From Klebsiella pneumoniae (lineage in GTDB: Bacteria; Pseudomonadota; Gammaproteobacteria; Ga0077536), in NCBI GenBank assembly GCA_945876945.1, contig CAMCQE010000004.1, positions 3,096 to 67,095 of the forward strand: a DNA stretch of 64,000 bases. Reading direction: 5' to 3'. The position numbers were made by a program, and so were the translations under genes. The notes below the pieces were generated by a model. It did no database searches, was not told the DNA's origin, and saw only the letters and a program-made list of their open reading frames with translations. Every line of letters starts with the position of its first letter. Position 1 is the stretch's first letter. This document shows positions 2,621 to 39,425 of this stretch, one piece after another.

Positions 2621-3463
2621 ATGGCACGACACGACGAAACGGTGGGTCGCTACGTTTACCTCACCATCAACGACATCGAATATCGCGTTTACTACGAATC
2701 CAGCGGAAGCGGCATTCCGCTGATCTGCCAGCACACCGCCGGCGCGCACGGCTTCCAGTGGCGCCATCTGATGGAAGACAAGGAAATCACCAGCAAGTAC
2801 CGCGTTATCGCCTGGGACCTGCCCTTCCACGGTAAATCACTGCCCCCGATTGGCGACCGTCACTGGGAAAAGCCCTATAACCTCACGCGCGACTTTTTCC
2901 TGAAATTTATTCTGGGATTCTCGGCCGCGCTGGAACTCGACCGCCCGGTGTTTATGGGCTGCTCGATGGGAGGCCAGGTGGCCGTTGACCTCGCCGCCCA
3001 TCATCCCGAGTCTTTCCGCGCCTCGATCGGCGTTGAAGCCTCGCTGACGAGCCCGGGCTACTACCTCGACCAGTTCTATCACCCGCGGATTAGCAACGAA
3101 GCCAAGCCGGCCACCATGTATGGCCTCTGCGCGCCGTCCAGCCCCGAGCCCCATGTGCGCGAAACCGTTTTTGGCTACAGCCAGGGCGCGCCCATGGTGT
3201 TCAAGGGCGACCTTTACTACTACTCGGTGGAATACAACGCGGAGTCCTACGCGGACACTATCGACACCGCTAAATGCCCGCTGTATCTGCTGACCGGTGA
3301 ATACGATTTCGCTACCGGGCCGGAAGAAACCAAGGCGCTGGCAGCCAGAATCAAGGGCGTTAAATTCACCGAAATGCGCGACAACGGGCATTTCCCGATG
3401 AGCGAAAATCCGCAGAAATTCCGTGAATACCTGCTGCCCATCCTGAAGGAAATTGCCGGCTAG
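2621..3463 (+). CDS. Alpha/beta-fold hydrolase
   Basis: It has the nucleophile elbow GCSMGG and a C-terminal GHF catalytic-His context. A GAGGAG Shine-Dalgarno sequence precedes the start. Confidence 0.8.
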   Translation: MARHDETVGRYVYLTINDIEYRVYYESSGSGIPLICQHTAGAHGFQWRHLMEDKEITSKYRVIAWDLPFHGKSLPPIGDRHWEKPYNLTRDFFLKFILGFSAALELDRPVFMGCSMGGQVAVDLAAHHPESFRASIGVEASLTSPGYYLDQFYHPRISNEAKPATMYGLCAPSSPEPHVRETVFGYSQGAPMVFKGDLYYYSVEYNAESYADTIDTAKCPLYLLTGEYDFATGPEETKALAARIKGVKFTEMRDNGHFPMSENPQKFREYLLPILKEIAG

Positions 3464-24411: not shown

Positions 24412-24828
24412 TCAAGCTCCGGTCTGCGCTGCCTGTTTTCGTGCGCAGCCAGCAAGAAATCGGTTTAATTCAACAGGGGCCCGGGCATGCCGGCCGCGCC
24501 CGATAAGGTCCACGCCATCGTGGGCCTCCACTTCAAAAGTCACCAGCGATTTGGAGACCTCAAGCACTCTCGCCGTCGCCGTCACGGTCATGCCCACCGG
24601 GGTTGCCGCCAGATGCCGAACATCCACCAGCGCGCCCACCGACACCCAGCCCGCGGGCAGATACGGGCGAATGAGATCGGCGCACACAATTTCCATGAAG
24701 AGAATCATGTTCGGCGTGGAATACACCGGCGGCAGATCCGGCACGGTAGCTTGCACGGTCAGCGCCTGCGTGACGTGCTGCGTCTGGCTCAGGCGGATAT
24801 CGAGCGGGATGAATTGCGGCCACTCCAT
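24412..24828 (-). CDS. Hotdog-fold thioesterase-like protein
   Basis: At 138 aa, with YSTPNMILFMEIVCADLIRPYL..G..SVGALVDVRHLAATPVG, it resembles small hotdog thioesterases. Confidence 0.55.
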   Translation of the reverse strand: MEWPQFIPLDIRLSQTQHVTQALTVQATVPDLPPVYSTPNMILFMEIVCADLIRPYLPAGWVSVGALVDVRHLAATPVGMTVTATARVLEVSKSLVTFEVEAHDGVDLIGRGRHARAPVELNRFLAGCARKQAAQTGA

Positions 24829-24837
24829 CTCGAAGCC

Positions 24838-25719
24838 TCAGCGCGCCAGGCCTGGTAGCCAACCCGCAATGGCTGAGGCAATAGCGTCCGGCGAATCTTC
24901 CTGAATGAAATGCAGTCCGGGCACGGTCACTTCCTGTTGGTTCCTGAACGTCCGGCACACCTCGCGCACGCGGCCGGCGATGACCATCCCCGGTTCGGCA
25001 TTAATGAACAGCTTCGGCGTTTCGCTCGCGGCCAGCCACGCGCTGTAGCGGGCCACGATGGCGCAGGACTCGGGCGGTTGATCGTCGATGGGGATTTGCC
25101 GAGGCCAGGTCAACGTGGGCCGCCGCGCTTCGCCGACTTCGGCAAACGGCGCGCGATAGGCGTCCATTTCTTCGGCAGTAAGTTCGCGCAGGATGGACTT
25201 CGGCAGCACACGCTCCACAAAAATGTTTTTGTTGAGGATGAGGTCTTCGCCAGCGTCCGAGCGAAACGCCTGAAAGATCCCCCGCGCGGATTCCGGCCAA
25301 TCGTCCCAGCTGAGTGCGATGGGAATGCCTTCCATATAGCAGATTCCCGCCACCGACCCCGCGTGCCGCGAGGCCCAGTCGAAACCGAGCGCCGTGCCCC
25401 AGTCGTGCAACACCAGCGTCACGGCCTCGGTCACGCCGAGCGCGGCCAGTGCCGCGTCGAAATACCCTTGATGCTCGGCCAGCGTGTAGCGCCCGGGACC
25501 TGAGTCCGGCAATTTTTCCGAGTCGCCCATGCCTATCAAATCCAGCGCGATACACCGGCCTTGCGTGGCCAACTGCGGCAGGATGTTCCGCCACAGATAG
25601 GACGAGGTGGGGTTGCCATGCTGAAAGACAATCGGCGCGCCCTGCCCCTGCTCGACGTAGGCCATGCGCCGGCCCAGCACCTCAATGAAGCGCTTTTGCG
25701 CCACCCAGGAATTGCTCAT
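24838..25719 (-). CDS. Haloalkane dehalogenase, HLD-II type
   Basis: Key motifs are HGNPTSSYLWRNILPQL, the nucleophile in LVLHDWG, YMEG (acid) and GLHFIQEDSP (His). I chose the ATG at 25719 (GAGGG Shine-Dalgarno), 10 nt after the upstream stop. Confidence 0.85.
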   Translation of the reverse strand: MSNSWVAQKRFIEVLGRRMAYVEQGQGAPIVFQHGNPTSSYLWRNILPQLATQGRCIALDLIGMGDSEKLPDSGPGRYTLAEHQGYFDAALAALGVTEAVTLVLHDWGTALGFDWASRHAGSVAGICYMEGIPIALSWDDWPESARGIFQAFRSDAGEDLILNKNIFVERVLPKSILRELTAEEMDAYRAPFAEVGEARRPTLTWPRQIPIDDQPPESCAIVARYSAWLAASETPKLFINAEPGMVIAGRVREVCRTFRNQQEVTVPGLHFIQEDSPDAIASAIAGWLPGLAR

Positions 25720-25729
25720 GACTTTGCCC

Positions 25730-26860
25730 TCATGCCACGACGCCATTGGCTTTCAGCGCCGCGTAGTCGCCGGCGCTGATCCCGACGGCCAGCAGCACGG
25801 ACTCGGTATCCGAGCAATCGGACGATTTCGGACGCGGGCTTGGCGCCGGGGTCCCGCTGAAGCGCGGCGAAGGTGCCGGTTGGAGTTCCCCCGCCACATC
25901 GATAAAAGTGCCGCGCGCCACGTTGTGCGGATGCAACGGGGCTTCCGCCAAATCGAGCACCGGGCCGTAACAGACATCGGTGCCTTCAAAGATGCCCGAC
26001 CATTCGTCGCGGGTTTTGGTTTTGATGATCGCGCCAATGTGCGCTTTGAATTCGGGCCATCGCTCGGGCACGTGCTGTTCGCCGAACACCGCATCGGTCA
26101 GCCCGAGTTTCTCGCGCAGGATGGCGTAGAACTGCGGCTCGATTGAACCAAAAGCCACGTATTTGCCATCGGCACACTCGTAGCACCCGTAGTAGTGCGC
26201 GGCGCCGGCCAGCGCGTTACTGCCGCGCACGTTGCTCCATTGTCCCTTGGCGTACACGCCGTAAATCATGCTCATGAGGCTGGCAGCGCCATCCACCATC
26301 GCCGCATCCACCACCTGACCACGACCGGTGCGCGAGGCCGAGAACAGTGCGCAGACCATGCCGTAGGCCAGGAGCAGTCCGCCGCCACCGAAATCGCCCA
26401 CCAGATTGAGCGGCGGGAACGGCGGGCGATCCGCCTCACCCATCGCGTGGAGCGCGCCGGTGATGGCGATGTAGTTGATGTCGTGACCGGCCGCGTTCGC
26501 CAGCGGGCCATCCTGCCCCCAACCGGTCATGCGCCCATAGACCAAACGCGGGTTGCGCGCGAGACAGACATCCGGCCCCAAGCCCAGACGCTCCATCACA
26601 CCCGGCCGGAAGGGCTCGAACAGGCCGTCGGCCTTGGCCACCAGCGTGAGCGCGAGTTCCACGCCGCGCGGGTCTTTGAGATTCAAACCGATCGAACGGC
26701 GATTGCGCGACAGGGCGCCATCGGCCCCCAGCGGCGGTCCGCCCTGCGGGCGGTCGATGCGAATAACGTCGGCGCCCAAATCGCCCAAAAATGTGCCCGC
26801 CAGTGGTCCGGGACCGATACCGGCAAACTCGATAATCGACAGACCTTCCAGCGGGCCCAT
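25730..26860 (-). CDS. Family III CoA-transferase (CaiB/BaiF; racemase-like)
   Basis: It begins MGPLEGLSIIEFAGIGPGPLAGTFLGDLGADVIRIDRP. The internal ATG at 26860 overlaps the upstream stop by 4 nt. Confidence 0.85.
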   Translation of the reverse strand: MGPLEGLSIIEFAGIGPGPLAGTFLGDLGADVIRIDRPQGGPPLGADGALSRNRRSIGLNLKDPRGVELALTLVAKADGLFEPFRPGVMERLGLGPDVCLARNPRLVYGRMTGWGQDGPLANAAGHDINYIAITGALHAMGEADRPPFPPLNLVGDFGGGGLLLAYGMVCALFSASRTGRGQVVDAAMVDGAASLMSMIYGVYAKGQWSNVRGSNALAGAAHYYGCYECADGKYVAFGSIEPQFYAILREKLGLTDAVFGEQHVPERWPEFKAHIGAIIKTKTRDEWSGIFEGTDVCYGPVLDLAEAPLHPHNVARGTFIDVAGELQPAPSPRFSGTPAPSPRPKSSDCSDTESVLLAVGISAGDYAALKANGVVA

Positions 26861-26862
26861 GC

Positions 26863-27741
26863 TCAGCGCCCCGCCCGGCCGACCATCGCCAGGATGCGTT
26901 CGGCCTGTTTGAGATGCGGCATGTCGATCATCTTGCCGTTGAGATTGAGCGCGCCCGCGTCCGGGTTGGCCGCGAAGGCATCCACCACCGCCTGCGCATG
27001 CTCGATTTCGGCCGCCGAAGGCGTAAACGCTTCGTTGATGATGGCCACCTGGTCCGGATGAATCGCAATCTTGCCGAGGTAGCCATCGCGGCGACCGTCT
27101 TCGCATTCCCGCTTCAGCAGCGTGGGATTGCGGAAATCCGGGCATACCGTGTCCAGCGGTTGCACGCCGGCGGCGTGGGCGCCGAACAGGCACAGCGAGC
27201 GCGCCAGCACATAGGGCGCGGTGTATTCGCCGTCAGACCCTTTGTTGGACGACGCGCCCAGCGCGGCGGCGAGGTCTTCTGCGCCCCAGGTCAACACGCG
27301 CAGACGCGGGGCGCCTTTGTACTGGCCAAGGCTGAACGGCGCGATGGCCGTCTCAGTCGCAATCGCGCAAATCGCGATACTGCCCTGCGGAATACCGTGT
27401 TCGATTTCCATCGCGTCGAGGTAGTGGCTCAACTGCTGAATGTGATGCGGCCCGTCGCACTTCGGTAGCGCGATGCCATCGGGGCGGGCTTTGGCGACCG
27501 CCGTGATGTCGCGCAGGGAATCCGCCGTATCGAGCGGATTAATCCGCACCCACAGCTCGCCCTCGGAGCGGTCGGCGGCGCGCAGGTATTCCTGAATCAT
27601 GTCGCGCGCGACCGGACGGCGCGAGGCGGCCACCGCGTCTTCCAGATCGAGAATCAGGGCGTCGGCGCCAACGCTGGCGCCTTTGGCGAGCTTCTTTTCG
27701 CTATCGCCGGGGACAAACAACATGGAACGTAAGACGGTCAT
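26863..27741 (-). CDS. HpcH/HpaI aldolase / citrate-lyase beta-subunit-like (CitE-like) acyl-CoA lyase
   Basis: MLFVPGDSEKKLAKG..ADALILDLEDAV is the CitE-like signature. The ATG at 27741 overlaps the MaoC gene stop by 4 nt. Confidence 0.8.
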   Translation of the reverse strand: MTVLRSMLFVPGDSEKKLAKGASVGADALILDLEDAVAASRRPVARDMIQEYLRAADRSEGELWVRINPLDTADSLRDITAVAKARPDGIALPKCDGPHHIQQLSHYLDAMEIEHGIPQGSIAICAIATETAIAPFSLGQYKGAPRLRVLTWGAEDLAAALGASSNKGSDGEYTAPYVLARSLCLFGAHAAGVQPLDTVCPDFRNPTLLKRECEDGRRDGYLGKIAIHPDQVAIINEAFTPSAAEIEHAQAVVDAFAANPDAGALNLNGKMIDMPHLKQAERILAMVGRAGR

Positions 27742-28193
27742 GCGGGCTTCCTCAGCATCAGGCCGGTGCGTTTGCACGCGGCGACGAGTTCATTGCGCTG
27801 GTTGTAGGCGCGGTGGGCAAAAATCACGATGCCGTTGGTGGGTCGGGATTTGGTGTCGCGCAATTCCACGACCTCGGTCTGAAAATGCAGGGTGTCCCCG
27901 TGAAAAACGGGCTTGGGGAAGCGCACTTCGTCCCAGCCGAGGTTGCCCACCGTGGTCCCCAGCGTGGTGTCGTAAACGGACACGCCCACCATCACCGACA
28001 GCGTAAAGCAGCTGTTAACGATGCGTTGGCCGAACTCGGTCTGCGTGCGGCAATACTCTTCGTCGAGATGCAGCAGCGCCGGGTTGTGGGTCATGGTGGT
28101 GAACAGCACGTTGTCCGTTTCGGTGACGGTGCGACGGATGGGATGGTCAAACGTCTGTCCGACGTAAAATTCTTCGTAGTAAAGTCCGGGCAT
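27738..28193 (-). CDS. MaoC-like (R)-specific enoyl-CoA hydratase/dehydratase
   Basis: The YEEFYVGQTFDHPIRRTVTETDNVLFTTMTHNPALLHLDEEY pattern fits single hotdog MaoC hydratases. Confidence 0.8.
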   Translation of the reverse strand: MPGLYYEEFYVGQTFDHPIRRTVTETDNVLFTTMTHNPALLHLDEEYCRTQTEFGQRIVNSCFTLSVMVGVSVYDTTLGTTVGNLGWDEVRFPKPVFHGDTLHFQTEVVELRDTKSRPTNGIVIFAHRAYNQRNELVAACKRTGLMLRKPA

Positions 28194-28325: not shown

Positions 28326-28769
28326 ATGCCGCACGCCGCCTTTGACGACAGTCTGATCCAGTGGCAGCCCTTCGGGCGCTATCAGGGTTTTCAGTACGCC
28401 CTGCTCCACGTCGACAGCACGACCCGCACAATGGACATGCTCTTCCGCTTTGAACCCAACGCGGACTGTTTCTATCACCGCCACGTGGCTGCCTCGCGCA
28501 CGCTGGTGCTGGCCGGCGAATATCGGGTCCGCGAGCCGCAGGCGGATGGCACCGAAGTTCTGAAAATTCGCCAGCCCGGCAGCTATGCCGCCGGAGAACC
28601 CGGCGACGTTCACATTGAAGGCGGCGGCCCCACCGGCTGCATCCTGCACATTTCCATCACCGCCCCCACCGACCACGTCTACGACATTCTCGACGAGCAA
28701 CTGCAAATCAAACGCTCGATCGGGATTGCCGACTTTGAAAACACTTTCAAGGCGCTGCAGGCGGCCTGA
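28326..28769 (+). CDS. Small cupin-like hypothetical protein
   Basis: GC3-biased coding. FYHRHVAASRTLVLAGEY ... GDVHIEGG resembles a cupin two-motif pattern. Confidence 0.5.
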   Translation: MPHAAFDDSLIQWQPFGRYQGFQYALLHVDSTTRTMDMLFRFEPNADCFYHRHVAASRTLVLAGEYRVREPQADGTEVLKIRQPGSYAAGEPGDVHIEGGGPTGCILHISITAPTDHVYDILDEQLQIKRSIGIADFENTFKALQAA

Positions 28770-30639
28770 GGGCGTTCCCGGATTCGCGCGCCTGCGCCAG
28801 CAGGCCTCGAACCCTCTTGAGTAGCTCGTCGTACGCCAGCGGTCGCGCGCTGGCTCGGGCCTCCGCCAGGGTTAATGATTCCGCGGCGGCAGTCAGCTCG
28901 CCCCGTGTGATCTGCCATTCTGCGCCGAGCAGCAGCGGCACCGGGCTGGCCGGGTTTTTATCCGCCGCGTCCTTCACTGCGGCAAACGCGATCTCCACCT
29001 CTCCCGCCTGCCAGGCCAACTGCGCGCGATAAAGGCGCAGTTTGTCGTAGCTGTCGCCCAGAGTCGTTGGCTTGGTGAGGGCGAGGTCTATGAGATCGCG
29101 CAAGTCGCGCCCCGGCAACTCACAGGCGCCTTCCAGCTTGAGTCGCGAGAGTTCCAACAAGCCGACAACGGCGTAGGTGGTGAGTGTGCGCTCCACCGCG
29201 AGCATCCCGGTTTCCAGCCTGACTTCCTTCACCGAGTGCGATTCCATGCACTCGATATGAGCCCGCTGCAACAGGGATCCGGCGCCGGGCAAGCCGCTGA
29301 GCAGCGCCCTGGCTGCAGCATATTGGCCCTGGGAGGACAGCCGCTCCGCCAACTGTGCGGCGGCGGTGGGCGAGCGGGGATGCAATTCATACAGGGCGAG
29401 GTCGAGCCGGGTCTGTTCACTCCAGTCGTAGACGATGGCGCGGGCGACCAGCAGGTTCAGGCACAACACCGCGACCAGCGCGGCTGCCCCGATGCGCCCG
29501 TAGACCCAAGGTCTGGCCAGCGCCATGGCGCTAAGCAGAATGCCAAACGACGGCAGATAGTTGCGATGCTCAAACATCAATTCCAGCGGGATGACGCTCG
29601 ACTCCAGCGACTGTCCCACCAGAAACCAGAGCAGGCCCAGCGCCACCAGCGGCTGGCGACGCCGCAAGCCCCAGCCGGCAAGTCCCAGCGCGCCCACTGT
29701 CAGACAGGCGGGCAAAGTGGTAACAGGGATCCAGAGCGATTGGGAAACGGCAATGTCGTCGTGCAAAAAACCGAGGCGGGCACGACTTGGCGCGAGGATT
29801 TCTGCGAGATACAGGCACAGCACGCGCGCCTCTGTCAGCAAGCGCTGCGCCAGCGTAAAGCCGCGCCGCGTGTAGGCAGCCGACAAGCCATCGTCCAGAT
29901 GCCGCAGCCAGTACACCCCGCCCAGCGCGAGCGCTGAACCCCCTAAAGCGAGCAGCAGGATCCGGGAGAAACGCCGCAGGCCGGCGTCACCTTTGCCGGC
30001 GAGCACCGTGAACTCGAGCGCGCCGAGGAATCCCGGCAGCAGCAGGCCGTTTTCCTTGGCACCGGCCGCGAGCGGCAAGCACAGCAAGTACACCAGCAGG
30101 ATCCGCAGGCGCGCGGGCCATCCGTCGGGCCGGTGCAGGCGAGTGTCGAGATAAAGCAGCATGCCGCAGACGCTGAACAGCGCCGAGAGTTGGGTCATGC
30201 GCTGTACCGTGTACAGCACGGTCGACACCCACAAAGGATGCAACAGCCACCAGGCGCCCAGCGCCACGCTGAGCACCGCGACCGCGCGCGACGAGAGTTC
30301 ACGCTGCGTGCTGAACACCAATCTCGCCAAGCCCACCAGCGCGATCCCGATCAGGCAATGCAGCAGCACATTGCTCAGCTTCCAGGCCCATAGCGCGTTG
30401 CCGAACAGGCTTGCGTTGGCGAGGAAACTCAGCATCGACACCGGCCGCCCCAGCGGCCCGGTAGGGCTCATCACCCATTGCGGCCAATCGGGTGGGAGCC
30501 CGTCCGCTTCAAGCAAACCCTCTAGCGCATGGTAGTCGTCAAACACCAGCGGGCCGTGCAGCCCCGGCAGATACAGCCACAGCGTGAGCGCGCAGAGCCC
30601 CGCCAGCGCGACCATGCACGGCAGGCGACGCTCGCTCAT
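28747..30639 (-). CDS. Polytopic membrane protein with GT-C-like (TMTC/PMT-type) N-terminal domain and C-terminal TPR-like repeats
   Basis: PLVFDDYHAL follows the first TM segment, more than 10 hydrophobic segments follow, and the tail is a helical repeat. I prefer the ATG at 30639 (GAAGGA Shine-Dalgarno) over the GTG at 30666. Confidence 0.55.
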   Translation of the reverse strand: MSERRLPCMVALAGLCALTLWLYLPGLHGPLVFDDYHALEGLLEADGLPPDWPQWVMSPTGPLGRPVSMLSFLANASLFGNALWAWKLSNVLLHCLIGIALVGLARLVFSTQRELSSRAVAVLSVALGAWWLLHPLWVSTVLYTVQRMTQLSALFSVCGMLLYLDTRLHRPDGWPARLRILLVYLLCLPLAAGAKENGLLLPGFLGALEFTVLAGKGDAGLRRFSRILLLALGGSALALGGVYWLRHLDDGLSAAYTRRGFTLAQRLLTEARVLCLYLAEILAPSRARLGFLHDDIAVSQSLWIPVTTLPACLTVGALGLAGWGLRRRQPLVALGLLWFLVGQSLESSVIPLELMFEHRNYLPSFGILLSAMALARPWVYGRIGAAALVAVLCLNLLVARAIVYDWSEQTRLDLALYELHPRSPTAAAQLAERLSSQGQYAAARALLSGLPGAGSLLQRAHIECMESHSVKEVRLETGMLAVERTLTTYAVVGLLELSRLKLEGACELPGRDLRDLIDLALTKPTTLGDSYDKLRLYRAQLAWQAGEVEIAFAAVKDAADKNPASPVPLLLGAEWQITRGELTAAAESLTLAEARASARPLAYDELLKRVRGLLAQARESGNALRPPAAP

Positions 30640-30690
30640 GCGCGTTCCTTCAAGCGGCGGCCGCACAACGGTGAGCGGGCCGCAGCCGGT

Positions 30691-32199
30691 TCAACCGCCG
30701 TTCTGGAACTGCTGACGCAGCAGATTCTTCTGCACTTTGCCCATAGTGTTGCGCGGCAAGGCGTCGACCAGCAGATAAGACTTGGGCAGCTTGTAGCCCG
30801 CCAGTTCGGTTTTGACCGCCGCTCTCGCCTGTGCTTCGTCGAACTCGCCGGCGACGCGCGGCACGATCACCGCTGCCACCTGCTCGCCAAAATCAGGATG
30901 AGGCAGGGCAATCACCGCCGATTCCAGCACCTGCGGCAGGCGATCGAGCACGGCTTCCACTTCGCTCGGATAGACGTTCAGACCGCCGGTAATGATGAGA
31001 TCTTTCGAGCGTCCGACGAGATAAAGATAGCCGTCTGCATCCAGACGGCCGTCGTCACCGGTGTTAAAAAAGCCCTCGGGCGAGATGTCTTCACGGGTTT
31101 TTTCGGGCATCCGCCAGTAGCCCCGAAACACGCTCTCCCCGCGCACCTGCACGTGGCCGACTTCGCCGTCGGCCACCGGCATGCCCGCGTCGTTCACCAA
31201 ACGGAGCTGCATGCCTGCCACAGTCGGCCCCACCGCGCTGGCGCGGCGTTCGCCGTGCAAGGGGTTAGAGGCGATAACGCTGGTTTCGGTCATGCCGTAG
31301 CGTTCGAGAATGCGTTGGCCGATGCGGTCTTCAAAGGCGCTAAAGGTCTCGCTCAACAAGGGCGCAGAGCCTGAAATGAACACGCGAATAGTGCCGGTGA
31401 GGTCGGCGGTAAACGCCGGATCGGCGAGCAGCCGGGTGTAGAACGTGGGCACGCCCATCATCACCGTACAACGGGGCAAGGCCGCCAGTACGGCCGCATT
31501 CTCGAAGCGCGGCAGCCACACCGCGCGCGAACCCGACATCAGCGTGCAGCCCAGCGCGATAAAGAGTCCGTGCACGTGGAATACGGGCAGGGCGTGGAGC
31601 AAGACGTCGTCCGCCGTAAACGCCCAGGCTTGCGCCAGGGCCCGCGCATTCGCCGCCAGATTGGCGTGACTCAGCATGATGCCTTTGGGTCGGCCCGTCG
31701 TGCCGGAGGAATACAGCAAGGCCGCCATATCGTCCGGCGCGACCGCTACCGTTTCAAACTCAGCGGGCAGCGACTCGGCCGCCGCCGCCAAACTGCCCTC
31801 GCCCAAGGCATCCATGGTGTAGCGGTGCGGGATGTTCAGGGTCTCGGCCAGCGCCAGGGCCGCGCTCGCCGCCGGATCGCCCACGAACAGCGCCGGTTCG
31901 GCATTCTCCAGAAAGTACTGAAGTTCCGCCGGCGTGTAGCCCGGATTGAGCGGATGGAAAGCAAACCCGCCGCGCAAACACGCCAGATAGAGCAGCAGGA
32001 AGTTCACGCTCTTCTCGGCCTGCACGCTCACGCGGTCGCCGCGCTGGAGGCCGAGGCCGGTGAGCAGCGTGGCGAAGCGGCCGCTACCGGCCAGCATCCC
32101 GGCGTAAGTCAGGCGCGCACCATCTGGCAATTCCAGCAAGGTCGAGTCGAGCTTGGCCGGAAAGTGGTCGGCAAACGCCGCAAACAAATTGGAACTCAT
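30691..32199 (-). CDS. AMP-forming acyl-CoA synthetase (MatB/malonyl-CoA-synthetase-like)
   Basis: It starts MSSNLFAAFADHF. The AMP-binding motif is LLYSSGTTGRPKG, followed by GDDGRLDADGYLYLVGRSKDLI. Confidence 0.8.
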   Translation of the reverse strand: MSSNLFAAFADHFPAKLDSTLLELPDGARLTYAGMLAGSGRFATLLTGLGLQRGDRVSVQAEKSVNFLLLYLACLRGGFAFHPLNPGYTPAELQYFLENAEPALFVGDPAASAALALAETLNIPHRYTMDALGEGSLAAAAESLPAEFETVAVAPDDMAALLYSSGTTGRPKGIMLSHANLAANARALAQAWAFTADDVLLHALPVFHVHGLFIALGCTLMSGSRAVWLPRFENAAVLAALPRCTVMMGVPTFYTRLLADPAFTADLTGTIRVFISGSAPLLSETFSAFEDRIGQRILERYGMTETSVIASNPLHGERRASAVGPTVAGMQLRLVNDAGMPVADGEVGHVQVRGESVFRGYWRMPEKTREDISPEGFFNTGDDGRLDADGYLYLVGRSKDLIITGGLNVYPSEVEAVLDRLPQVLESAVIALPHPDFGEQVAAVIVPRVAGEFDEAQARAAVKTELAGYKLPKSYLLVDALPRNTMGKVQKNLLRQQFQNGG

Positions 32200-32209
32200 C
32201 GGTAGCGCC

Positions 32210-33355
32210 TTACAGTGAGCGAGCAATCAGTTCCTTCATGATTTCGTTACTGCCGCCGTAAATCATCGACACCCGGTTGTCGGCGAAGTAATGCGCGATC
32301 GGATAATCCATGATGTAGCCGTAGCCGCCGTGCAACTGCAGGCAGCGGTGGATCGCTTCCTGCGCTTTCTCCGAGCACCAGTACTTGGCCATAGAGGCGG
32401 TGGCCGAATCGAGCTTGCCCTCAATGAGCCGGGTAATGCAGTCGTCTACGAACACGCGCGCGATGTGGGCTTCGGTCGCGCATTCCACCAGCGTGAAGCG
32501 GGTGTTCTGGAAATCAAACAGCTTTTGGCCGAAGGCCTCGCGCTGACGCACATATTCCAGCGTGTGATGCACGGCGCTTTCCATCGCACTGACCGACTGC
32601 AGGCCGATCATCAGACGCTCGCGACCCAACTGGCTCATCAGCTGATAGAAGCCCTGCCCTTCCACCCCGCCCAGCACATTGCCGACCGGCACGCGGCAAT
32701 CGTCAAAAAAGAGTTCGCTGGTGTCCTGCGCCTTCATGCCGATTTTTTTCAACGGCTTGCCGCGACGAAAACCTTCCAGCCCATCGGTTTCGACCAGCAG
32801 CAGGGAAATGCCTTTGGCGCGTTCGGCGGGGTTGGTCTTGCACACCAGCACGATGAGGTTGGCGTTGTAGCCATTGGTGATAAAGGTCTTGGAGCCGTTC
32901 ACCACGTAGTGGTCGCCGTCGCGCACCGCGCGGGTTTTCACCGACTGCAAATCCGATCCCGTGCCGGGTTCGGTCATCGCAATCGAGGTGATGATTTCGC
33001 CGCTCGCCATCCGCGGCAGGTACTTCTGCTTTTGATCTTCGGTGGCGTAGGCCATGAAGTAATGCGCCACGATGCTCTGGATCGCGCAGCCAAAACCCGA
33101 CACGCAGGCCCGGCCCATTTCCTCGTAAACAATGGCGTCAAAGCCAAAATCCGCCCCGCCACCGCCGTACTCGGTGGGGATGTCCGGGCACAGCAGACCC
33201 GCCTCACCGGCCTGACGCCAGGCGCTCGGATCGGAATGTCCTTGTTCGATCCAGCGCTCGCGCGCCGGCACGAATTCGGTTTCAACGAAGCGACGTACGT
33301 TATCGCGATAGAGATCGTGTTCGGCGGTGAGCCAGGAGGAACGATAGCCTTGCAT
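32210..33355 (-). CDS. Acyl-CoA dehydrogenase
   Basis: AMTEPGTGSD, the C-terminal GGSNEIMKELIARSL and overall ACAD organisation are present. I chose the internal ATG at 33355. Confidence 0.9.
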   Translation of the reverse strand: MQGYRSSWLTAEHDLYRDNVRRFVETEFVPARERWIEQGHSDPSAWRQAGEAGLLCPDIPTEYGGGGADFGFDAIVYEEMGRACVSGFGCAIQSIVAHYFMAYATEDQKQKYLPRMASGEIITSIAMTEPGTGSDLQSVKTRAVRDGDHYVVNGSKTFITNGYNANLIVLVCKTNPAERAKGISLLLVETDGLEGFRRGKPLKKIGMKAQDTSELFFDDCRVPVGNVLGGVEGQGFYQLMSQLGRERLMIGLQSVSAMESAVHHTLEYVRQREAFGQKLFDFQNTRFTLVECATEAHIARVFVDDCITRLIEGKLDSATASMAKYWCSEKAQEAIHRCLQLHGGYGYIMDYPIAHYFADNRVSMIYGGSNEIMKELIARSL

Positions 33356-33422
33356 GGGATGAACTCCGTAAGGATGCCGCAGGGACACCCCTGCGCCGGG
33401 TTGAATAATTCGGGGCTGATGA

Positions 33423-34625
33423 TCAGGTGGCGTGCAGACCGAACAGCGACACGCTCGCCACATTGCGGAACGGATGACCGCCCAGATTGTGGGTCAGGCC
33501 AATCGTCGGATTGCTAATCTGGCGGTCGCCGGCGCGACCCAGCAGCTGCAGGTACATTTCATACGCCATGCGCAGGCCCGTGGCGCCAATCGGATGGCCA
33601 AAGCATTTCAGCCCGCCGTCGACCTGACACGGCACCTTGCCGTCGCGGTCGAACACGCCGTCGAGGATATCCTTGCTCGCGCCACCTTCAGGCGACACGC
33701 CGAGGTCTTCCATCACCACCAGTTCGGTCACGGAGAAGCAGTCGTGCACTTCCATCATGCTGATTTCTTCGCGCGGATTGGTGATGCCCGCTTCCTGATA
33801 CGCCTTCTGTGCGGCCACGCGGGTGGTAAGAAAATAAGAGCCGTCCCAACCGGTATTCGACATTTCGTAGCCGTTGCTCGGCGCGAGCTGCATGGCTTTC
33901 ACGGTGACCACATCGGTGAAGCCCATCTCGCGGGCTTTTTCCACGGTAGTCACTATCGCGCAGGCCGCGCCATCGCTCACGCCGCAGCAGTCGAGCAAGC
34001 CGAGCGGATAGGCCACGGTGGAGGCTTTGAGTGCTTCTTCTTCGGTAATGCGCTTGCGCAGATGCGCTTTGGGGTTGAGCACGCCGTTTTCGTGGCTTTT
34101 CACCGATACATGCGCCATTGCGCGTTTGAGATCTTCCATCGGAATCTTGTGCTTGGCGGCGTAGGCGCTGGCCAACTGGGCAAACGCGCCGGGCGCGGTG
34201 GCGTTGGGCAGCCAGAGGTCGTCGAACGTGCCCTTGGTGCGCTCCGGCAAGCCGGCGTAGCCGGTGTCTTTCAGTTTTTCCACGCCCACCGCGAGCGCGA
34301 TATCACAAGCCCCCGCCGCTACCGCGTAGACCGCGCCGCGCAAGGCTTCGGTGCCGGTGGCGCACATATTTTCGACCCGCGTCACCGGAATATTCGGCAG
34401 GCGCAGGCTTAAGGCCAGCGGCAGTGCCGACTTTCCCGTGCTTTGTTCCTGATAGAACAGGCCCAGCCAGGCCATTTCAATGTCTTCACGCGCAATGCCG
34501 GCGTCGGCCAACGCTTCTTTGAAGGCTTCGAGAATGAGTTCCTCCGGCCCGCAGTCCCAGCGCTCGCCAAACCGCGAACAGCCCATCCCGATAATGGCAA
34601 CCTTGTCCTTAATACCCTTGGCCAT
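33423..34625 (-). CDS. SCP-x-type thiolase (lipid-transfer-protein-like)
   Basis: It begins VAIIGMGCSRFGERW. The nucleophile context is NMCATGTEAL, with HDCF and HNLGG motifs. Confidence 0.85.
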   Translation of the reverse strand: MAKGIKDKVAIIGMGCSRFGERWDCGPEELILEAFKEALADAGIAREDIEMAWLGLFYQEQSTGKSALPLALSLRLPNIPVTRVENMCATGTEALRGAVYAVAAGACDIALAVGVEKLKDTGYAGLPERTKGTFDDLWLPNATAPGAFAQLASAYAAKHKIPMEDLKRAMAHVSVKSHENGVLNPKAHLRKRITEEEALKASTVAYPLGLLDCCGVSDGAACAIVTTVEKAREMGFTDVVTVKAMQLAPSNGYEMSNTGWDGSYFLTTRVAAQKAYQEAGITNPREEISMMEVHDCFSVTELVVMEDLGVSPEGGASKDILDGVFDRDGKVPCQVDGGLKCFGHPIGATGLRMAYEMYLQLLGRAGDRQISNPTIGLTHNLGGHPFRNVASVSLFGLHAT

Positions 34626-34646
34626 AGTGAATTCCTCTTAATCGGT

Positions 34647-36083
34647 TCATTGGGCCAGCGGGGGCGCCGGCTTCCAGAAATAACGCCGAAAGTTACGGCG
34701 CGTATCGAAATCCTTGATGCGGAAGACCATCCGCACTTCGCTGCCCACCTGCACCGCGCCGGGCGCGAAGTCGGTGAATTCCAGCATGCAGTTGGCGCCG
34801 TCAGGAAACTCCACGTTGCCGTAGATGTACGGCGGCAAGGGCGTGAAGGCCAGCCAGTCTTCGGTATACGACTTCACCCGGCCGAGCAGATCGGACAGGC
34901 TCTCCGGCTGCTGCGTGTCCATCTCCCCGCACTTCACGCACACCTGACTGCGCGGATATTGCAGCGTATTACACGCGCTGCAACGGCCGCCCACCATGCC
35001 GGTGATATCCTGCCGGCGGCGATAAAACGCCGATTGCGAAGTGCGGTTATCGCGCTCGGCGCGCATCCCGAAATCGAATTCAATCCGCTCGCGGAGCGAG
35101 AGGAACATCGTGTAGTTCTCGACCACCCGCTTGGCGGCGATGTAGCGCGCCGGGCCGCGGGAGCTCTGCAAGGCGGCGAGCTGTGGGGTGGTTTCGATCA
35201 CCAGCGCGTCCGCGCCCTGCCCGAAACCCACCACCATCAGGGTTTCGCCAGGCACGGCGGTTTCCAGTGCGAGACTCAACATGAGCAAGGAATGCGCGGC
35301 GCCACAGTCGCCCACTTGGCCGGCGAGGGGATCCACCAGACGGTCCTCCCCCACCTTCAGGATTTTCGCCAAGCCCTTGGCGATGCTGGCAGAGGTGGGG
35401 ATGATGAAGCGGTGCACTTCGGCCAGCGCGATGCCGGCGGCATCGGCTGCGGCCTGCACCGCGCGCGGTACGATTTTGTTGTAGCCCTCTTCGCGGATCC
35501 AACGCTCCTCAAGGGAGTAGTCGTAATCGGTGTCGTTGGCGCGGTACTGGTCCACCATGTCTTCGTGCACCGAGGCGGCGCCGCGAATGAGCGCCACCGG
35601 ATCGCCTTCGCCCAACAACAACGCGGCGGCGGCATGGCCGTACAGCATTTCCTGCGCGCTGCCGGGCCGGGTCTCCCGGGTATCGGCCGCCAGCAACAGC
35701 GTGGTGGGGGCGCCTTGCGTGAACCGGCTCATCCGCACCAGCGCACTGGTCGCTGCCCGGCGACTCCCGGCAAGGTCTTCGGTGCTTACCGTGCCGGCCA
35801 GTTGTAAGGCGTCTGCCACCACCCCGCTATTGCTGCGGTCGGCGAACGGCAAAGTGGTGGAAGCCAGTTGCACCTGCTCGATCGAGCGCGGCAGGCCGCT
35901 CAGGCAGTTCCGCGCGGCCTCCACTGACAGCGTGATGCTGTCTTCATCCCAGTTCGCAAAAGACCGCTCGCCTTTCTGGCTTTTAGCGCCGGGCGAGGCC
36001 CAGCTGATCGCCTGCGCGATGGCCTGACGGGTAATTCTGAAAGTGGGCACATAGGCCCCAAAGGACAGGATTCCGAAACTCAT
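34647..36083 (-). CDS. HMG-CoA-synthase/KAS-III-like domain fused to a DUF35 (zinc ribbon + OB-fold) domain
   Basis: The N-terminal part has GAYVPTFRI and DEDSITLSVEAA (HMGCS-like). The C-terminal part has CSACNTLQYPRSQVCVKCG followed by an OB-fold-like tail. I chose the internal ATG at 36083. Confidence 0.7.
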   Translation of the reverse strand: MSFGILSFGAYVPTFRITRQAIAQAISWASPGAKSQKGERSFANWDEDSITLSVEAARNCLSGLPRSIEQVQLASTTLPFADRSNSGVVADALQLAGTVSTEDLAGSRRAATSALVRMSRFTQGAPTTLLLAADTRETRPGSAQEMLYGHAAAALLLGEGDPVALIRGAASVHEDMVDQYRANDTDYDYSLEERWIREEGYNKIVPRAVQAAADAAGIALAEVHRFIIPTSASIAKGLAKILKVGEDRLVDPLAGQVGDCGAAHSLLMLSLALETAVPGETLMVVGFGQGADALVIETTPQLAALQSSRGPARYIAAKRVVENYTMFLSLRERIEFDFGMRAERDNRTSQSAFYRRRQDITGMVGGRCSACNTLQYPRSQVCVKCGEMDTQQPESLSDLLGRVKSYTEDWLAFTPLPPYIYGNVEFPDGANCMLEFTDFAPGAVQVGSEVRMVFRIKDFDTRRNFRRYFWKPAPPLAQ

Positions 36084-36150
36084 AGTCAGGTATTCCCAAT
36101 GCTGGAATGGAGACCGCGCCGGGGCGCGTGGCCGGATTATACGGAGCAAG

Positions 36151-36170
36151 GCCAGACTGGCGAGTCTGGC
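36151..36170. promoter_or_regulatory. 8-bp perfect inverted repeat in a divergent promoter region
   Basis: GCCAGACT-ggcg-AGTCTGGC lies between the thiolase operon and ettA, next to a minus-strand TATAAT (complement of 36136-36141). Confidence 0.35.
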
Positions 36171-36252: not shown

Positions 36253-37929
<1,677 letters not shown>

Positions 37930-37937
37930 GAGATGCC

Positions 37938-39425
37938 ATGAGCAGTTCGCCGACCATCCCGCTTGGCGTCAGTGTCGCCGGCAAGGAAAGCACCCAGCTC
38001 GCCGGCATGATGAATCGCCACGGGCTGGTGGCGGGCGCTACCGGCACCGGCAAGACCGTGACCCTGCAGGTGCTGGCCGAAGGGCTGTCGCGCATCGGGG
38101 TGCCGGTCTTTACCGCCGACATCAAAGGGGATTTGTCCGGGCTGGCGGAGACGGGCAAATCGTCGGCCCGGCTGGAGGAGCGCCTCGCCGCCACCGGCAT
38201 TCTTGACCATCGGTTCGAGAGTTTTCCGGTGGCGTTCTGGGATTTGTTCGGTGAGGCCGGCACCCCGGTGCGCATGACCATCTCCGAGATGGGGCCGCTG
38301 GTGCTGGCGCGCCTGCTACAGTTGAACGACACGCAAACCGGCGTGCTCTACGCCGCGTTCAAAATTGCAGACGACCAGGGGCTGCTGCTGCTCGATCTGG
38401 ACGACCTCCGCTCGCTGCTCACCTTCGTGGGCCAACACGCGGCGGAACTCAAGCTCACCTACGGCAATCTGTCGGCCACCAGCATCGGGGCGATTCAGCG
38501 CAATCTGCTGGTGCTGGACACCCAGGGCGCGAACCAGGTGTTTGGTGAACCGGCGCTGGGGCTGAAAGACCTGATGCAGGTCTCGCCCGACGGCCGCGGC
38601 GTGATCAACCTGCTCGACGCCACCAAGCTCGTCACCGCTTCACCCGACCTCTACGCCTGCTTTCTGTTTTGGCTCTTATCCGAACTGTTTGAAGAACTGC
38701 CGGAGCGCGGCGATGCGGAGAAGCCGCTGCTGGTGTTGTTCTTCGACGAAGCGCATCTGTTGTTTCGCGACACCCCCAAACCGCTGGTCGACAAGATCGA
38801 ACAGGTGGTGCGCTTGATTCGCTCGAAGGGCGTGGGCGTGTTCTTTGTCACGCAAAGCCCGCTTGATGTGCCGCAAGGCATTCTTGGCCAGTTGGGCCTG
38901 AAAATTCAGCACGCGCTGCGCGCCTTCACGCCGCGGGAACAGAAGGCCGTGCAGGTGGTGGCGGAATCCTTCCGCGCCAATCCGGGCCTGAATACCGCGA
39001 CCGCCATCACGGAACTCGGCACCGGCGAAGCGCTGATTTCCACGCTCGATGCCAAAGGTCAGCCAACCCCGGTCGAACTCGTGCTGATTCGCCCGCCCTC
39101 CGCACAAATTGGGCCGGCCAGCGCCGAACGGCGCCGCGAGATCATGGAAGCGAGTCCGCTGCAGGAGCGCTACGCCACGGCGATTAATCGTGAATCCGCG
39201 CACGAGAAACTGACCCAACGCGCCACGGCCCGGGTGGAGGTGAACGCCGAACGGGAGGCGCCCGCAGCGCCCGAAGAGGCGGCGCCAAGCCGCGGCGCAG
39301 GCCGCATCCGCGAGACGCCGACCGAAGCGCTCGTGAAAAGCGTGCTCCGCGCGGCCGGCAGCCAAATCGGTCGCCAGATCGTGCGCGGCATTCTCGGCTC
39401 CCTGCTCGGCGGCGGTCGCCGCTAA
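37938..39425 (+). CDS. HerA-like/DUF853 P-loop ATPase (YjgR type)
   Basis: Walker A is GATGTGKT and Walker B is LLVLFFDEAH. At 495 aa with a basic C-terminal tail, it fits YjgR. Confidence 0.8.
   Translation: MSSSPTIPLGVSVAGKESTQLAGMMNRHGLVAGATGTGKTVTLQVLAEGLSRIGVPVFTADIKGDLSGLAETGKSSARLEERLAATGILDHRFESFPVAFWDLFGEAGTPVRMTISEMGPLVLARLLQLNDTQTGVLYAAFKIADDQGLLLLDLDDLRSLLTFVGQHAAELKLTYGNLSATSIGAIQRNLLVLDTQGANQVFGEPALGLKDLMQVSPDGRGVINLLDATKLVTASPDLYACFLFWLLSELFEELPERGDAEKPLLVLFFDEAHLLFRDTPKPLVDKIEQVVRLIRSKGVGVFFVTQSPLDVPQGILGQLGLKIQHALRAFTPREQKAVQVVAESFRANPGLNTATAITELGTGEALISTLDAKGQPTPVELVLIRPPSAQIGPASAERRREIMEASPLQERYATAINRESAHEKLTQRATARVEVNAEREAPAAPEEAAPSRGAGRIRETPTEALVKSVLRAAGSQIGRQIVRGILGSLLGGGRR

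Follow-up and report, generated by a model that had tools for sequence, protein, structure and literature searches.

Liao et al. (Nat Commun 2026; PMC12960953) have described 1,030 bacterial loci in which genes for 3-hydroxy-3-methylglutaryl-coenzyme A (HMG-CoA) synthase (HMGS, also HMGCS), ACAT and a DUF35 protein are co-localised, 1,001 of which are without secondary-metabolism neighbours, and a representative from Pseudomonas fluorescens was characterised in the same study. The latter complex comprises a fused HMGS-DUF35 protein devoid of the E-C-H-N tetrad and an ACAT that keeps its Cys, HDxF and GHx motifs; it forms neither HMG-CoA nor acetoacetyl-CoA from acetyl-CoA, it cleaves acetoacetyl-CoA with an activity that is nearly abolished by the mutation H294Y, and it was read by its authors as an unrecruited evolutionary intermediate (PMC12960953). 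Similarly, catalysis in PhlACB relies on residues of PhlC only, with PhlA and PhlB being required for the complex to assemble (PMC6392133), and MucABC and CsATase likewise depend for their assembly on an inactive HMGS-like subunit and leave the chemistry to the thiolase-fold subunit. Here, we have analysed a related locus in a stretch of 64,000 nucleotides, subsequently termed the window (positions 3,096 to 67,095 of the forward strand of contig CAMCQE010000004.1, assembly GCA_945876945.1), where four co-directional genes on the minus strand encode an HMGS-DUF35 fusion protein, an SCP2-type thiolase, an acyl-CoA dehydrogenase (ACAD) and a MatB-like ligase, in the order that had been correctly recognised in a preliminary description of this DNA. 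With a probability of about 75%, we regard the inactive HMGS homologue and its DUF35 part as a non-catalytic partner of the adjacent thiolase within a catabolic CoA module. The novelty that the preliminary description had implied is not borne out, since the architecture and the loss of catalytic residues were already published in January 2026 (PMC12960953) and the window contains a further member of this group. What is added to this work is the size of the family, its strict pairing with a thiolase, the conservation of the vestigial loops and of a linker, and a conserved catabolic gene cluster.

The catalytic set of HMGS consists of a Glu, a Cys and a His plus an Asn, whereas a Cys/His/Asn triad is that of FabH. 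To relate these residues to the fusion protein, three pairwise alignments and two multiple alignments were used, the latter including the HMGCS of M. thermolithotrophicus (6esq_I), two PhlA proteins and close and distant members of the family. In these, Glu82 of HMGCS (GSESHPY) corresponds to Thr76 of the fusion protein (ASTTLPF), Cys114 (EFACKAGT) to Arg108 (AGSRRAAT) and Asn270 (LGNTYSG) to Asp259 (VGDCGAA), while the column of the His, which is not conserved in the family, contains Ile227 when aligned by phmmer and Pro229 when aligned by MAFFT and thus a His by neither method. The motifs quoted in the preliminary description are all present in the fusion protein (LAGSRRAATSAL at residues 104-115, FIIP at 226-229 and GDCGAAHS at 258-265), and its proposal of a lost triad holds insofar as there is no Cys and no His and the Asn is replaced by Asp, with no canonical Cys/His/Asn set emerging for the window protein from pairwise or multiple alignments. 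In contrast, its placement of the nucleophile at Ser107 was one residue out of register, as the Cys column is occupied by Arg108, and it listed the triad of FabH and did not mention the loss of the HMGS Glu at Thr76, although the conclusion of a loss remains valid.

The absence of the catalytic Glu and Cys extends throughout the family. Among 90 relatives taken from genomes and plasmids, the catalytic Glu and Cys are found in none (0/90): position 76 is a Thr in 90/90, position 108 is R in 62, Q in 18, L in 8, M in 1 and A in 1 and never a Cys, and position 259 is D in 70, while the others carry H, Q, N, Y, F or L. The adjacent Arg109 in the fusion merely keeps the Lys that comes after the Cys in true HMGS. 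A comparable situation is found in PhlA, where Cys83 resides at the position of the Glu and Gly115 at the position of the Cys (PMC6392133), and which in our alignment shares the change from Asn to Asp with the fusion. Judged by their sequences, the fusion proteins thus cannot make HMG-CoA. Nevertheless, in an alignment of 85 sequences with a mean identity of 64% to the window protein, the most conserved 15-mers of the fusion include the loops 73-87 and 101-115, besides residues 401-415 in the core of DUF35 and 337-351 in the linker, a pattern that fits a protein selected for the contacts near its former active site and not a decaying relic.

The relationship to HMGS is also manifested in the domain organisation and the predicted fold. 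The archaeal-type HMGS model PRK04262 covers residues 2-335 of the fusion protein (E = 1.2e-47), with a score of 162.7 bits that stays below the NCBIfam cutoff of 244 bits, and other HMGS equivalogs are likewise under their cutoffs (TIGR00748, 109 vs 353; TIGR01835, 19.9 vs 360). Pfam assigns ACP_syn_III_C, zf-ChsH2 (364-386) and OB_ChsH2_C (401-455), and in the Protein Data Bank (PDB) the fusion matches PhlA (4e-23) and archaeal HMGCS (9e-18) in sequence, with its DUF35 part matching the chains 6ok1_B, 6esq_E and 5m3k_B. The zinc-ribbon cysteines C368, C371, C382 and C385 are invariant in 90/90 relatives. A model of the fusion obtained with AlphaFold2 (AF2) from an alignment of 85 homologues (predicted local distance difference test, pLDDT, 88.2; predicted TM score, pTM, 0.90) finds its best PDB match by Foldseek in 6et9_I (E = 3.8e-23, TM 0.83). 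The top ten matches are all HMGS-like subunits of DUF35-containing complexes, among them archaeal HMGCS (6et9), CsATase (9skh), PhlA (5mg5/5m3k) and MucA (9vbo/9vbt), and free-standing HMGS and FabH rank below those ten. The fold match that the HMGS-like domain shows in the predicted structure greatly exceeds what chance would give. The protein thus contains an HMGS domain of thiolase fold but displays neither the residues nor the equivalog scores of an HMG-CoA synthase.

A distinct feature of the fusion concerns the linker between its two parts, whose motif DFGxRAERDNRT is mostly invariant in the 85 sequences, with R347 being near-invariant, and which harbours the sole long low-confidence stretch of the AF2 model (residues 340-354, pLDDT < 50 in the monomer). 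The linker aligns just upstream of residue 26 of PhlB, at the position of the N-terminal tail of this protein, which is buried between PhlA and PhlC (PMC6392133), and it is for this reason that we propose it as a candidate interface element, which by analogy would become ordered upon binding. Certain members of the family are longer owing to additional domains at the C-terminus: P0150 (911 aa) has the architecture pseudoHMGS-DUF35-SDR-SCP2, where SDR denotes a short-chain dehydrogenase/reductase, P0160 (800 aa) carries an added SDR and P0143 (722 aa) two SCP2 domains. In the manner of a Rosetta-stone link, these added domains tie the module to the MFE-2/SCPx-style beta-oxidation of bulky or branched acyl-CoAs.

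Unlike the synthase domain, the partner thiolase retains a complete set of catalytic residues. It reaches 670 bits with the NCBIfam model PRK06157 (cutoff 403), and its best solved relative is 6esq_A, the thiolase of the archaeal thiolase/HMGCS/DUF35 complex (2e-54). Its catalytic residues Cys88 (CATG), His294-Asp-Cys296-Phe and Gly-His344-Pro comprise the nucleophile, the HDCF and the GHP motif by which an SCP2-type thiolase is recognised, and none of the eight motif residues varies among the partner thiolases (83/83). This confirms the previously noted conservation of the catalytic motifs CATG (C88), HDCF (294-297) and NLGG (380-383), to which the preserved GHP motif with H344 can now be added. 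In all loci with sufficient downstream sequence, from Gammaproteobacteria to Rhodococcus, the thiolase gene comes immediately after the fusion gene, with a spacing that ranges from 21 nt down to an overlap and with overlaps being frequent. In the window, it begins 21 nt past the stop codon of the fusion gene in the same reading frame.

The same motifs bear on two explanations that would assign a different reaction to the thiolase-like protein. It could be a retro-aldolase like Ltp2 or Sal, cleaving a 3-hydroxyacyl-CoA provided by the MaoC-type hydratase that is encoded further downstream. DUF35 is a known partner of these thiolase-fold aldolases (PMC12329534), the MaoC gene is the best-conserved of the cluster (72-96% identical in about 40 related loci), and a retro-aldolase would explain why no SDR or hydroxyacyl-CoA dehydrogenase was found within 10 kb in 32/32 loci of the clade to which the window belongs. 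However, in Ltp2 and Sal the HDCF motif is replaced by YDHF or YDCY, whose Tyr acts as catalytic base (PMC12329534), whereas the window protein, like each of its 83 relatives, has kept Cys88 and HDCF and thus lacks the motif of the aldolases. Since the cluster additionally already contains a CitE-type hydroxyacyl-CoA lyase and the Pseudomonas homologue acts as thiolase in vitro, we consider a retro-aldolase very unlikely. Even less credible is a biosynthetic function, either as C-acyltransferase (Friedel-Crafts) of the PhlACB/MucABC type or as producer of acetoacetyl-CoA. Although PhlA is the best sequence match of the HMGS-like domain and the replacement of Asn by Asp is found in both, the Friedel-Crafts enzymes have lost the His of HDxF (PMC12960953), while HDCF is invariant here. 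Moreover, PhlC is a weak match of the window thiolase (3.6e-16 compared to 2e-54 for the archaeal thiolase), there are no genes of polyketide synthases (PKS) or non-ribosomal peptide synthetases (NRPS) nearby, where the neighbours are catabolic, and the fused complex of Pseudomonas made no condensation product.

Our results thus support the role as pseudo-enzyme scaffold for the thiolase that was one of two possibilities raised in the preliminary description, based on the absence of Glu and Cys in 90 relatives, the 83 intact thiolases and the strict gene adjacency. This role is also backed by the nearest structures, which are tripartite thiolase complexes, and by the biochemistry of the P. fluorescens complex, which is confined to thiolysis (PMC12960953). 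The second possibility, a condensing enzyme with new chemistry, is disfavoured because the residue at the position of the Cys varies (R, Q, L, M, A), which is unfit for a catalytic residue, and because the Pseudomonas complex gave no condensation product from acetyl-CoA (PMC12960953). In the mechanism that we envision, the fusion protein and the downstream SCP2-type thiolase would assemble 1:1 into a complex that is organised as (A-B)n(C)n in the manner of 6ESQ/5MG5, with the fusion serving as non-catalytic A+B half and the thiolase alone doing the chemistry. A fusion of both parts should be unproblematic, as A and B are equimolar in the solved complexes. In the thiolase, Cys88 would be the acyl-accepting nucleophile and Cys296 of HDCF the acid/base, with His294 and His344 polarising the thioester, and the enzyme would use CoA to cleave a 3-oxoacyl-CoA. 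For folding, solubility and quaternary structure, the complex would depend on the inactive synthase domain and DUF35, and the conserved vestigial loops and the linker would probably line one wall of a shared chamber for CoA and substrate, as the pockets of PhlA and HMGCS do. Within a CoA-dependent catabolic gene cluster, the module as a whole would carry out thiolysis.

The survey of the fusion's distribution that had been suggested in the preliminary description revealed a large family with strict thiolase pairing across phyla. An exhaustive HMMER search identified 447 clusters (50% identity) at E <= 1e-30, where nearly all of the top 150 clusters are 460-500 aa long and match end to end, and a word-index search returned at least 1,897 matches. 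Full-length fusion genes are found on plasmids of Sphingobium, Novosphingobium, Variovorax, Azoarcus, Paraburkholderia, Tistrella and Rhodococcus, and the clade of the window consists almost entirely of uncultured Gammaproteobacteria of lake, groundwater and sea-water origin. A look-up of 10 distant cluster representatives found no cultured or characterised member. Across syntenic loci, the fusion is 53-87% identical, a degree of conservation that roughly equals that of the ACAD and exceeds that of the ligase. Members of the family carry the public names 'hydroxymethylglutaryl-CoA synthase' or '3-hydroxy-3-methylglutaryl CoA synthase', although all are devoid of the Glu and the Cys, and these labels are likely to give rise to spurious mevalonate pathways in the annotation of metagenome-assembled genomes (MAGs). 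The environmental MAG contigs L010, L018, L078, L014 and L028, which carry the cluster, go under the names 'Klebsiella pneumoniae', 'Klebsiella sp.' or 'Enterobacteriaceae', names that look mislabelled because the closest relatives are gammaproteobacterial MAGs from lakes and groundwater.

The module is embedded in a conserved genomic neighbourhood (Table 1). In the window clade, the fusion, thiolase, ACAD and MatB-like ligase genes are followed by a variable insert of 0-3.5 kb coding for membrane proteins, and by the genes of a MaoC hydratase, a CitE/HpcH-type lyase and an alpha/beta hydrolase (LinB-type), with the gene of a family III CoA-transferase sometimes placed before the latter and that of a FlK-family thioesterase after it in about 25 loci, and most of this series is kept in about 40 species-level genomes. 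The window has the full downstream set from MaoC to FlK (24412..28193), which is split from the ligase by an open reading frame (ORF) of 639 aa that has no tblastn match in 86 related loci, where the genes of ligase and MaoC are adjacent or parted by other membrane proteins. At the same spot, other loci contain different membrane proteins, which are either DUF2306-like or an unknown protein of 525 aa, and a small cupin ORF of the window has a match in the locus L042 only.

Table 1. Features of the fusion-thiolase locus and its conserved surroundings, in window positions.
Feature	Position	Strand	Length	Basis or remark
Fusion gene: HMGS-like pseudo-enzyme domain, linker and DUF35 (zinc ribbon and OB fold)	34647..36083	-	478 aa	
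HMGS-like domain, residues 1-335, vestigial active site	35079..36083	-		Thr76, Arg108, Asp259, no His
Codons in the fusion gene	Thr76 35856-35858, Arg108 35760-35762, Asp259 35307-35309	-		Alignments
Linker, residues 336-362, motif DFGxRAERDNRT	34998..35078	-		Conservation
DUF35: four-Cys zinc ribbon and OB fold (about residues 391-472)	34650..34997	-		PF12172, PF01796
SCP2-type thiolase, putative catalytic partner	33423..34625	-	400 aa	PRK06157, 6esq_A
Acyl-CoA dehydrogenase, LCAD-like	32210..33355	-	381 aa	Three ACAD Pfam domains
MatB-like AMP-forming (di)carboxylate-CoA ligase	30691..32199	-	502 aa	PRK07514, 4fuq
Promoter-like element 5' of fusion start	36136..36163	-		TCGCCA-16-TATAAT
Multi-pass membrane/TPR ORF, window-specific insert outside the conserved cluster	28747..30666	-	639 aa	Weak TPR matches only
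MaoC-type (R)-enoyl-CoA hydratase	27738..28193	-	151 aa	PF01575, MC_hydratase
CitE/HpcH-type acyl-CoA lyase	26863..27777	-		PF03328, PF15617
Family III CoA-transferase	25730..26860	-		PF02515 at 6e-79
LinB-type haloalkane dehalogenase	24838..25746	-		NF002938
FlK-family hotdog thioesterase, final gene of the conserved cluster	24412..24828	-		PF22636 at 5e-33
Small cupin ORF	28326-28769	+		Within cluster

The neighbouring enzymes were assigned from their scores with family models and from their relationship to proteins of known structure. The ACAD, which is syntenic in about 45 related loci, finds its best PDB matches in 2pg0 (2e-109) and the human long-chain acyl-CoA dehydrogenase (LCAD, 2e-102). 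Its assignment as methylsuccinyl-CoA or glutaryl-CoA dehydrogenase was rejected, as Mcd (8ciw) matches with 2e-40 only and the NCBIfam equivalogs are far under their cutoffs. The ligase reaches 703 bits with PRK07514, the model for malonyl-CoA synthase (cutoff 558), which is a subfamily-level model that establishes membership among MatB proteins but does not fix the identity of the substrate, and it matches R. palustris MatB (4fuq) over its full length (E = 2e-152). The MaoC protein scores 123 bits with the RipB/Ich model, under its cutoff of 340 bits, and the lyase, whose gene is syntenic, scores 164 bits with citE and 157 bits with RipC/Ccl, both under cutoff, and is closest in the PDB to human CLYBL (5vxc, 3.5e-36). 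With scores well under their cutoffs, the itaconate equivalogs RipB/Ich and RipC/Ccl were thus rejected as assignments, although they are related. The trio of MaoC, lyase and CoA-transferase (25730-28193) resembles genes of itaconate or C5-dicarboxylate degradation, with all scores below the equivalog cutoffs. The CoA-transferase is found at the position of the window only in some related loci, while in many others a roughly 27%-identical family III transferase is located just upstream of the fusion instead. The hydrolase is a haloalkane dehalogenase with 401 bits for NF002938 (cutoff 241), close matches to 7pw1 (2.6e-121) and LinB (1cv2, 3.6e-116) and a catalytic pentad that is complete in the alignment (Asn, Asp-Trp, Glu, His), and its identity across about 40 related loci amounts to 52-79%. 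It adjoins the thioesterase of the FlK family, the family of fluoroacetyl-CoA thioesterases, which shows synteny in about 25 loci. We also considered a pathway to olefins or beta-lactones of the OleABCD type, which combines members of the thiolase superfamily, the AMP-ligase family and the HLD family of hydrolases, but rejected it, since the hydrolase is a true dehalogenase of the LinB type and the ligase is MatB-like and not OleC-like.

From these assignments, some tentative conclusions can be drawn with respect to the substrate. The dicarboxyl or branched acyl-CoA that the preliminary description had suggested is plausible in light of the MatB-like ligase, the RipB/Ich-like hydratase, the CitE/CLYBL-like lyase and the CoA-transferase, and as the genes resemble C5-dicarboxylate routes, a small, branched or dicarboxylic acid is the probable substrate in the window clade. 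A halogenated precursor is hinted at by the linkage to the dehalogenase and the FlK-family thioesterase. It is conceivable, though on balance rather doubtful, that the cluster constitutes an undescribed CoA-dependent pathway for degrading a compound of natural origin that is either halogenated or a C4-C6 (di)carboxylic acid, where the dead site (Thr76, Arg108, Arg109, Asp259) would be reused as a wall for substrate recognition by the thiolase. If true, the specificity of a thiolase would be set by a pseudo-enzyme, for example by binding a distal carboxylate, and LinB-type haloalkane dehalogenases would gain a physiological context in bacteria that do not degrade pollutants. The linkage to the dehalogenase offers a tangible clue to what LinB-type enzymes do in nature, and it is the pathway, the possible function of the dead site and this linkage that are of interest beyond what is known of such complexes.

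A second context was found in a distant clade of 45-55% identity (loci L004, L006, L057-L087 and L088, the latter on a Niveispirillum plasmid), where the thiolase gene is followed by those of an SDR (59-81% identical), a CMD-family protein, a Rieske oxygenase and a TonB-dependent receptor, and the fusion gene is preceded by that of another Rieske oxygenase. Glutathione S-transferases and a CoA-transferase are also located nearby. Cultured carriers in this clade are Eilatimonas milleporae DSM 25217 (L067) and Niveispirillum cyanobacteriorum TH16 (L088). The arrangement appears similar to the ibuprofen ipf cluster, with its CoA ligase, dioxygenase and thiolase plus DUF35. In Variovorax, the neighbours are SDR, MaoC, ACAD and CoA-transferase and in Rhodococcus an enoyl-CoA hydratase (ECH), ACAD, Rieske oxygenase and AMP-ligase. 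The contexts are thus always beta-oxidation-like, being composed of ACAD, MaoC, SDR, CoA-transferase, AMP-ligase and Rieske oxygenases.

These contexts bear on the published interpretation of the P. fluorescens complex by Liao et al., according to which it would be an evolutionary leftover that has lost its function in the mevalonate pathway without being recruited to another (PMC12960953). In favour of this interpretation, no pathway is known and the known activity in vitro is confined to the generic thiolysis of acetoacetyl-CoA (PMC12960953). In contrast, the 447 clusters, the strict pairing across phyla and the strong conservation including the dead site, combined with a synteny that in about 40 species-level genomes extends to a defined set of at least seven catabolic genes and with a second context containing SDR and Rieske oxygenases, leave this view with hardly any credence. 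Our data, which describe a widespread and tightly paired module in at least two conserved catabolic contexts, thus weigh against an unrecruited intermediate, and the conserved cluster and its synteny would instead argue for an active catabolic module.

A further explanation assigns a new function to the remnant of the HMGS site, which could serve as pocket for a distal carboxylate or the phosphates of CoA via Arg108, Arg109 and Asp259 or, with lower likelihood, as new catalytic centre, such as a decarboxylase resembling the KSQ ketosynthases, in which the Cys is replaced by Gln. The loops 73-87 and 101-115 belong to the most conserved segments of the protein, Arg108 and Asp259 are fixed in 44/45 loci where the context contains ACAD and MatB-like ligase, compared to Q, L, R or M at position 108 in the clade with SDR context, and the ligase is MatB-like and thus dicarboxylate-activating. 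Additionally, the pockets of the HMGS side and the thiolase side share one chamber in PhlACB and the archaeal complex (PMC6392133, PMC12960953). However, the relation between Arg108 and context is confounded by phylogeny, since the loci with ACAD and ligase form one tight clade, Arg109 is a mere continuation of the HMGS Lys, the residue at the Cys position varies family-wide, and the P. fluorescens complex is without activity besides thiolysis (PMC12960953). A KSQ-type decarboxylase was rejected, as the His and Asn required for this chemistry are missing. Overall, we regard a new function of the remnant site as unlikely.

Several observations weigh against the view of the fusion as non-catalytic partner of a catabolic thiolase. 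The extreme conservation of Arg108, Arg109 and Asp259 in the window clade could mean that the remnant site does more than scaffolding. The cluster of the window is split by the non-conserved 639-aa ORF, and with no 3-hydroxyacyl-CoA dehydrogenase nearby the source of the 3-oxoacyl-CoA is unexplained. This enzyme may either be encoded elsewhere, or the substrate may already be in the 3-oxo form, or the product of the hydratase may proceed to the CitE-like lyase, with the thiolase acting on another intermediate. Both the assembly of the window proteins and the role of the vestigial loops are deduced from sequence, synteny and related systems, and activity was directly shown for the homologue, to which that of the putative window complex is likened. 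The presumed orthology to the P. fluorescens proteins is in turn based on the matching description and the numbering of H294. With these points considered, the module nevertheless appears as a good system to ask what a pseudo-enzyme gives to its active partner.

The boundaries of the operon are defined as follows. The fusion protein starts at position 36083 with the N-terminus MSFGILSF; its ORF could be extended to 36254, yet all homologues begin at the Met of MS(F/Y)GILSFG, which corresponds to 36083. The promoter-like element TCGCCA-16-TATAAT is contained in this putative extension and is a consensus match only, with agreement in 10/12 positions. An Rfam scan of the whole window detected no riboswitch and no other RNA family, and a scan for terminators gave a result that is not above the expectation from shuffled sequence. 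At 36253-39425 on the plus strand, the window contains an EttA-type ABC-F gene that is divergent from the operon, then a HerA/DUF87-like ATPase. The closest relatives often have EttA as well (75-97% identical), at a distance of 1.8-7.8 kb upstream of the cluster, and the chromosomal position of the cluster is thus conserved.

The module was compared with several known systems. The archaeal complex of M. thermolithotrophicus (6ESQ/6ET9) provides the best structural match of the HMGS domain and the best sequence match of the thiolase, which carries the same HDCF and GHP motifs, and it is likewise organised by a DUF35 scaffold. In contrast to the window, where the synthase half is dead and fused to DUF35, its HMGCS is active (Glu82, Cys114, His, Asn), and the complex channels acetoacetyl-CoA to HMG-CoA for the mevalonate pathway. 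PhlACB (P. protegens, 5M3K/5MG5), CsATase (9SKH) and MucABC (S. macacae, 9VBO/9VBT) consist of equimolar inactive HMGS-like, DUF35 and SCP2-type thiolase-fold subunits. The HMGS-like subunits of this group are without the Glu and Cys and with Asp for Asn, and they are the best match in sequence and among the best in structure. However, these complexes are composed of three separate polypeptides, are encoded in antibiotic clusters and in their thiolase-fold subunit have lost HDxF in favour of Friedel-Crafts C-acylation, whereas HDCF is kept in the window and the surroundings are catabolic.

Among degradative systems, the benzoylsuccinyl-CoA thiolase BbsAB (7PXP) combines DUF35 with an SCP2-type thiolase containing HDxF, which cleaves a bulky 3-oxoacyl-CoA in a pathway with ACAD, hydratase and family III CoA-transferase, but it contains no HMGS-like component, and the window proteins are not equivalogs of its subunits (NCBIfam BbsB, 142 vs 750 bits; BbsA, 18.6 vs 250 bits). 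In Ltp2-ChsH2 and Sal-Shy, a thiolase-fold enzyme is similarly placed on a DUF35 domain fused to another protein, with MaoC in the same pathway, yet this other protein is a hydratase and not an HMGS-like domain and the enzymes are aldolases of steroid side chains with YDHF or YDCY motifs. The peroxisomal MFE-2/SCPx system shares the (R)-specific MaoC hydratase and the SCP2-type thiolase, and some members of the family contain SDR and SCP2 domains. It differs in that the window system is bacterial and lacks an SDR and in that its pseudo-HMGS/DUF35 protein has no eukaryotic counterpart. The closest resemblance is found with the P. fluorescens complex, with which the window shares the fused architecture, the loss of the tetrad, the intact adjacent thiolase and the lack of PKS and NRPS neighbours. 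The window thiolase, with 400 aa and the His of HDCF at position 294, also agrees with the numbering of H294 in P. fluorescens, and the window complex would be expected to show the same activity, which is thiolysis and no formation of HMG-CoA. What distinguishes the window is its affiliation with an uncultured gammaproteobacterial clade and its conserved cluster of ACAD, ligase, MaoC, lyase, dehalogenase and often a CoA-transferase, which is not described in PMC12960953.

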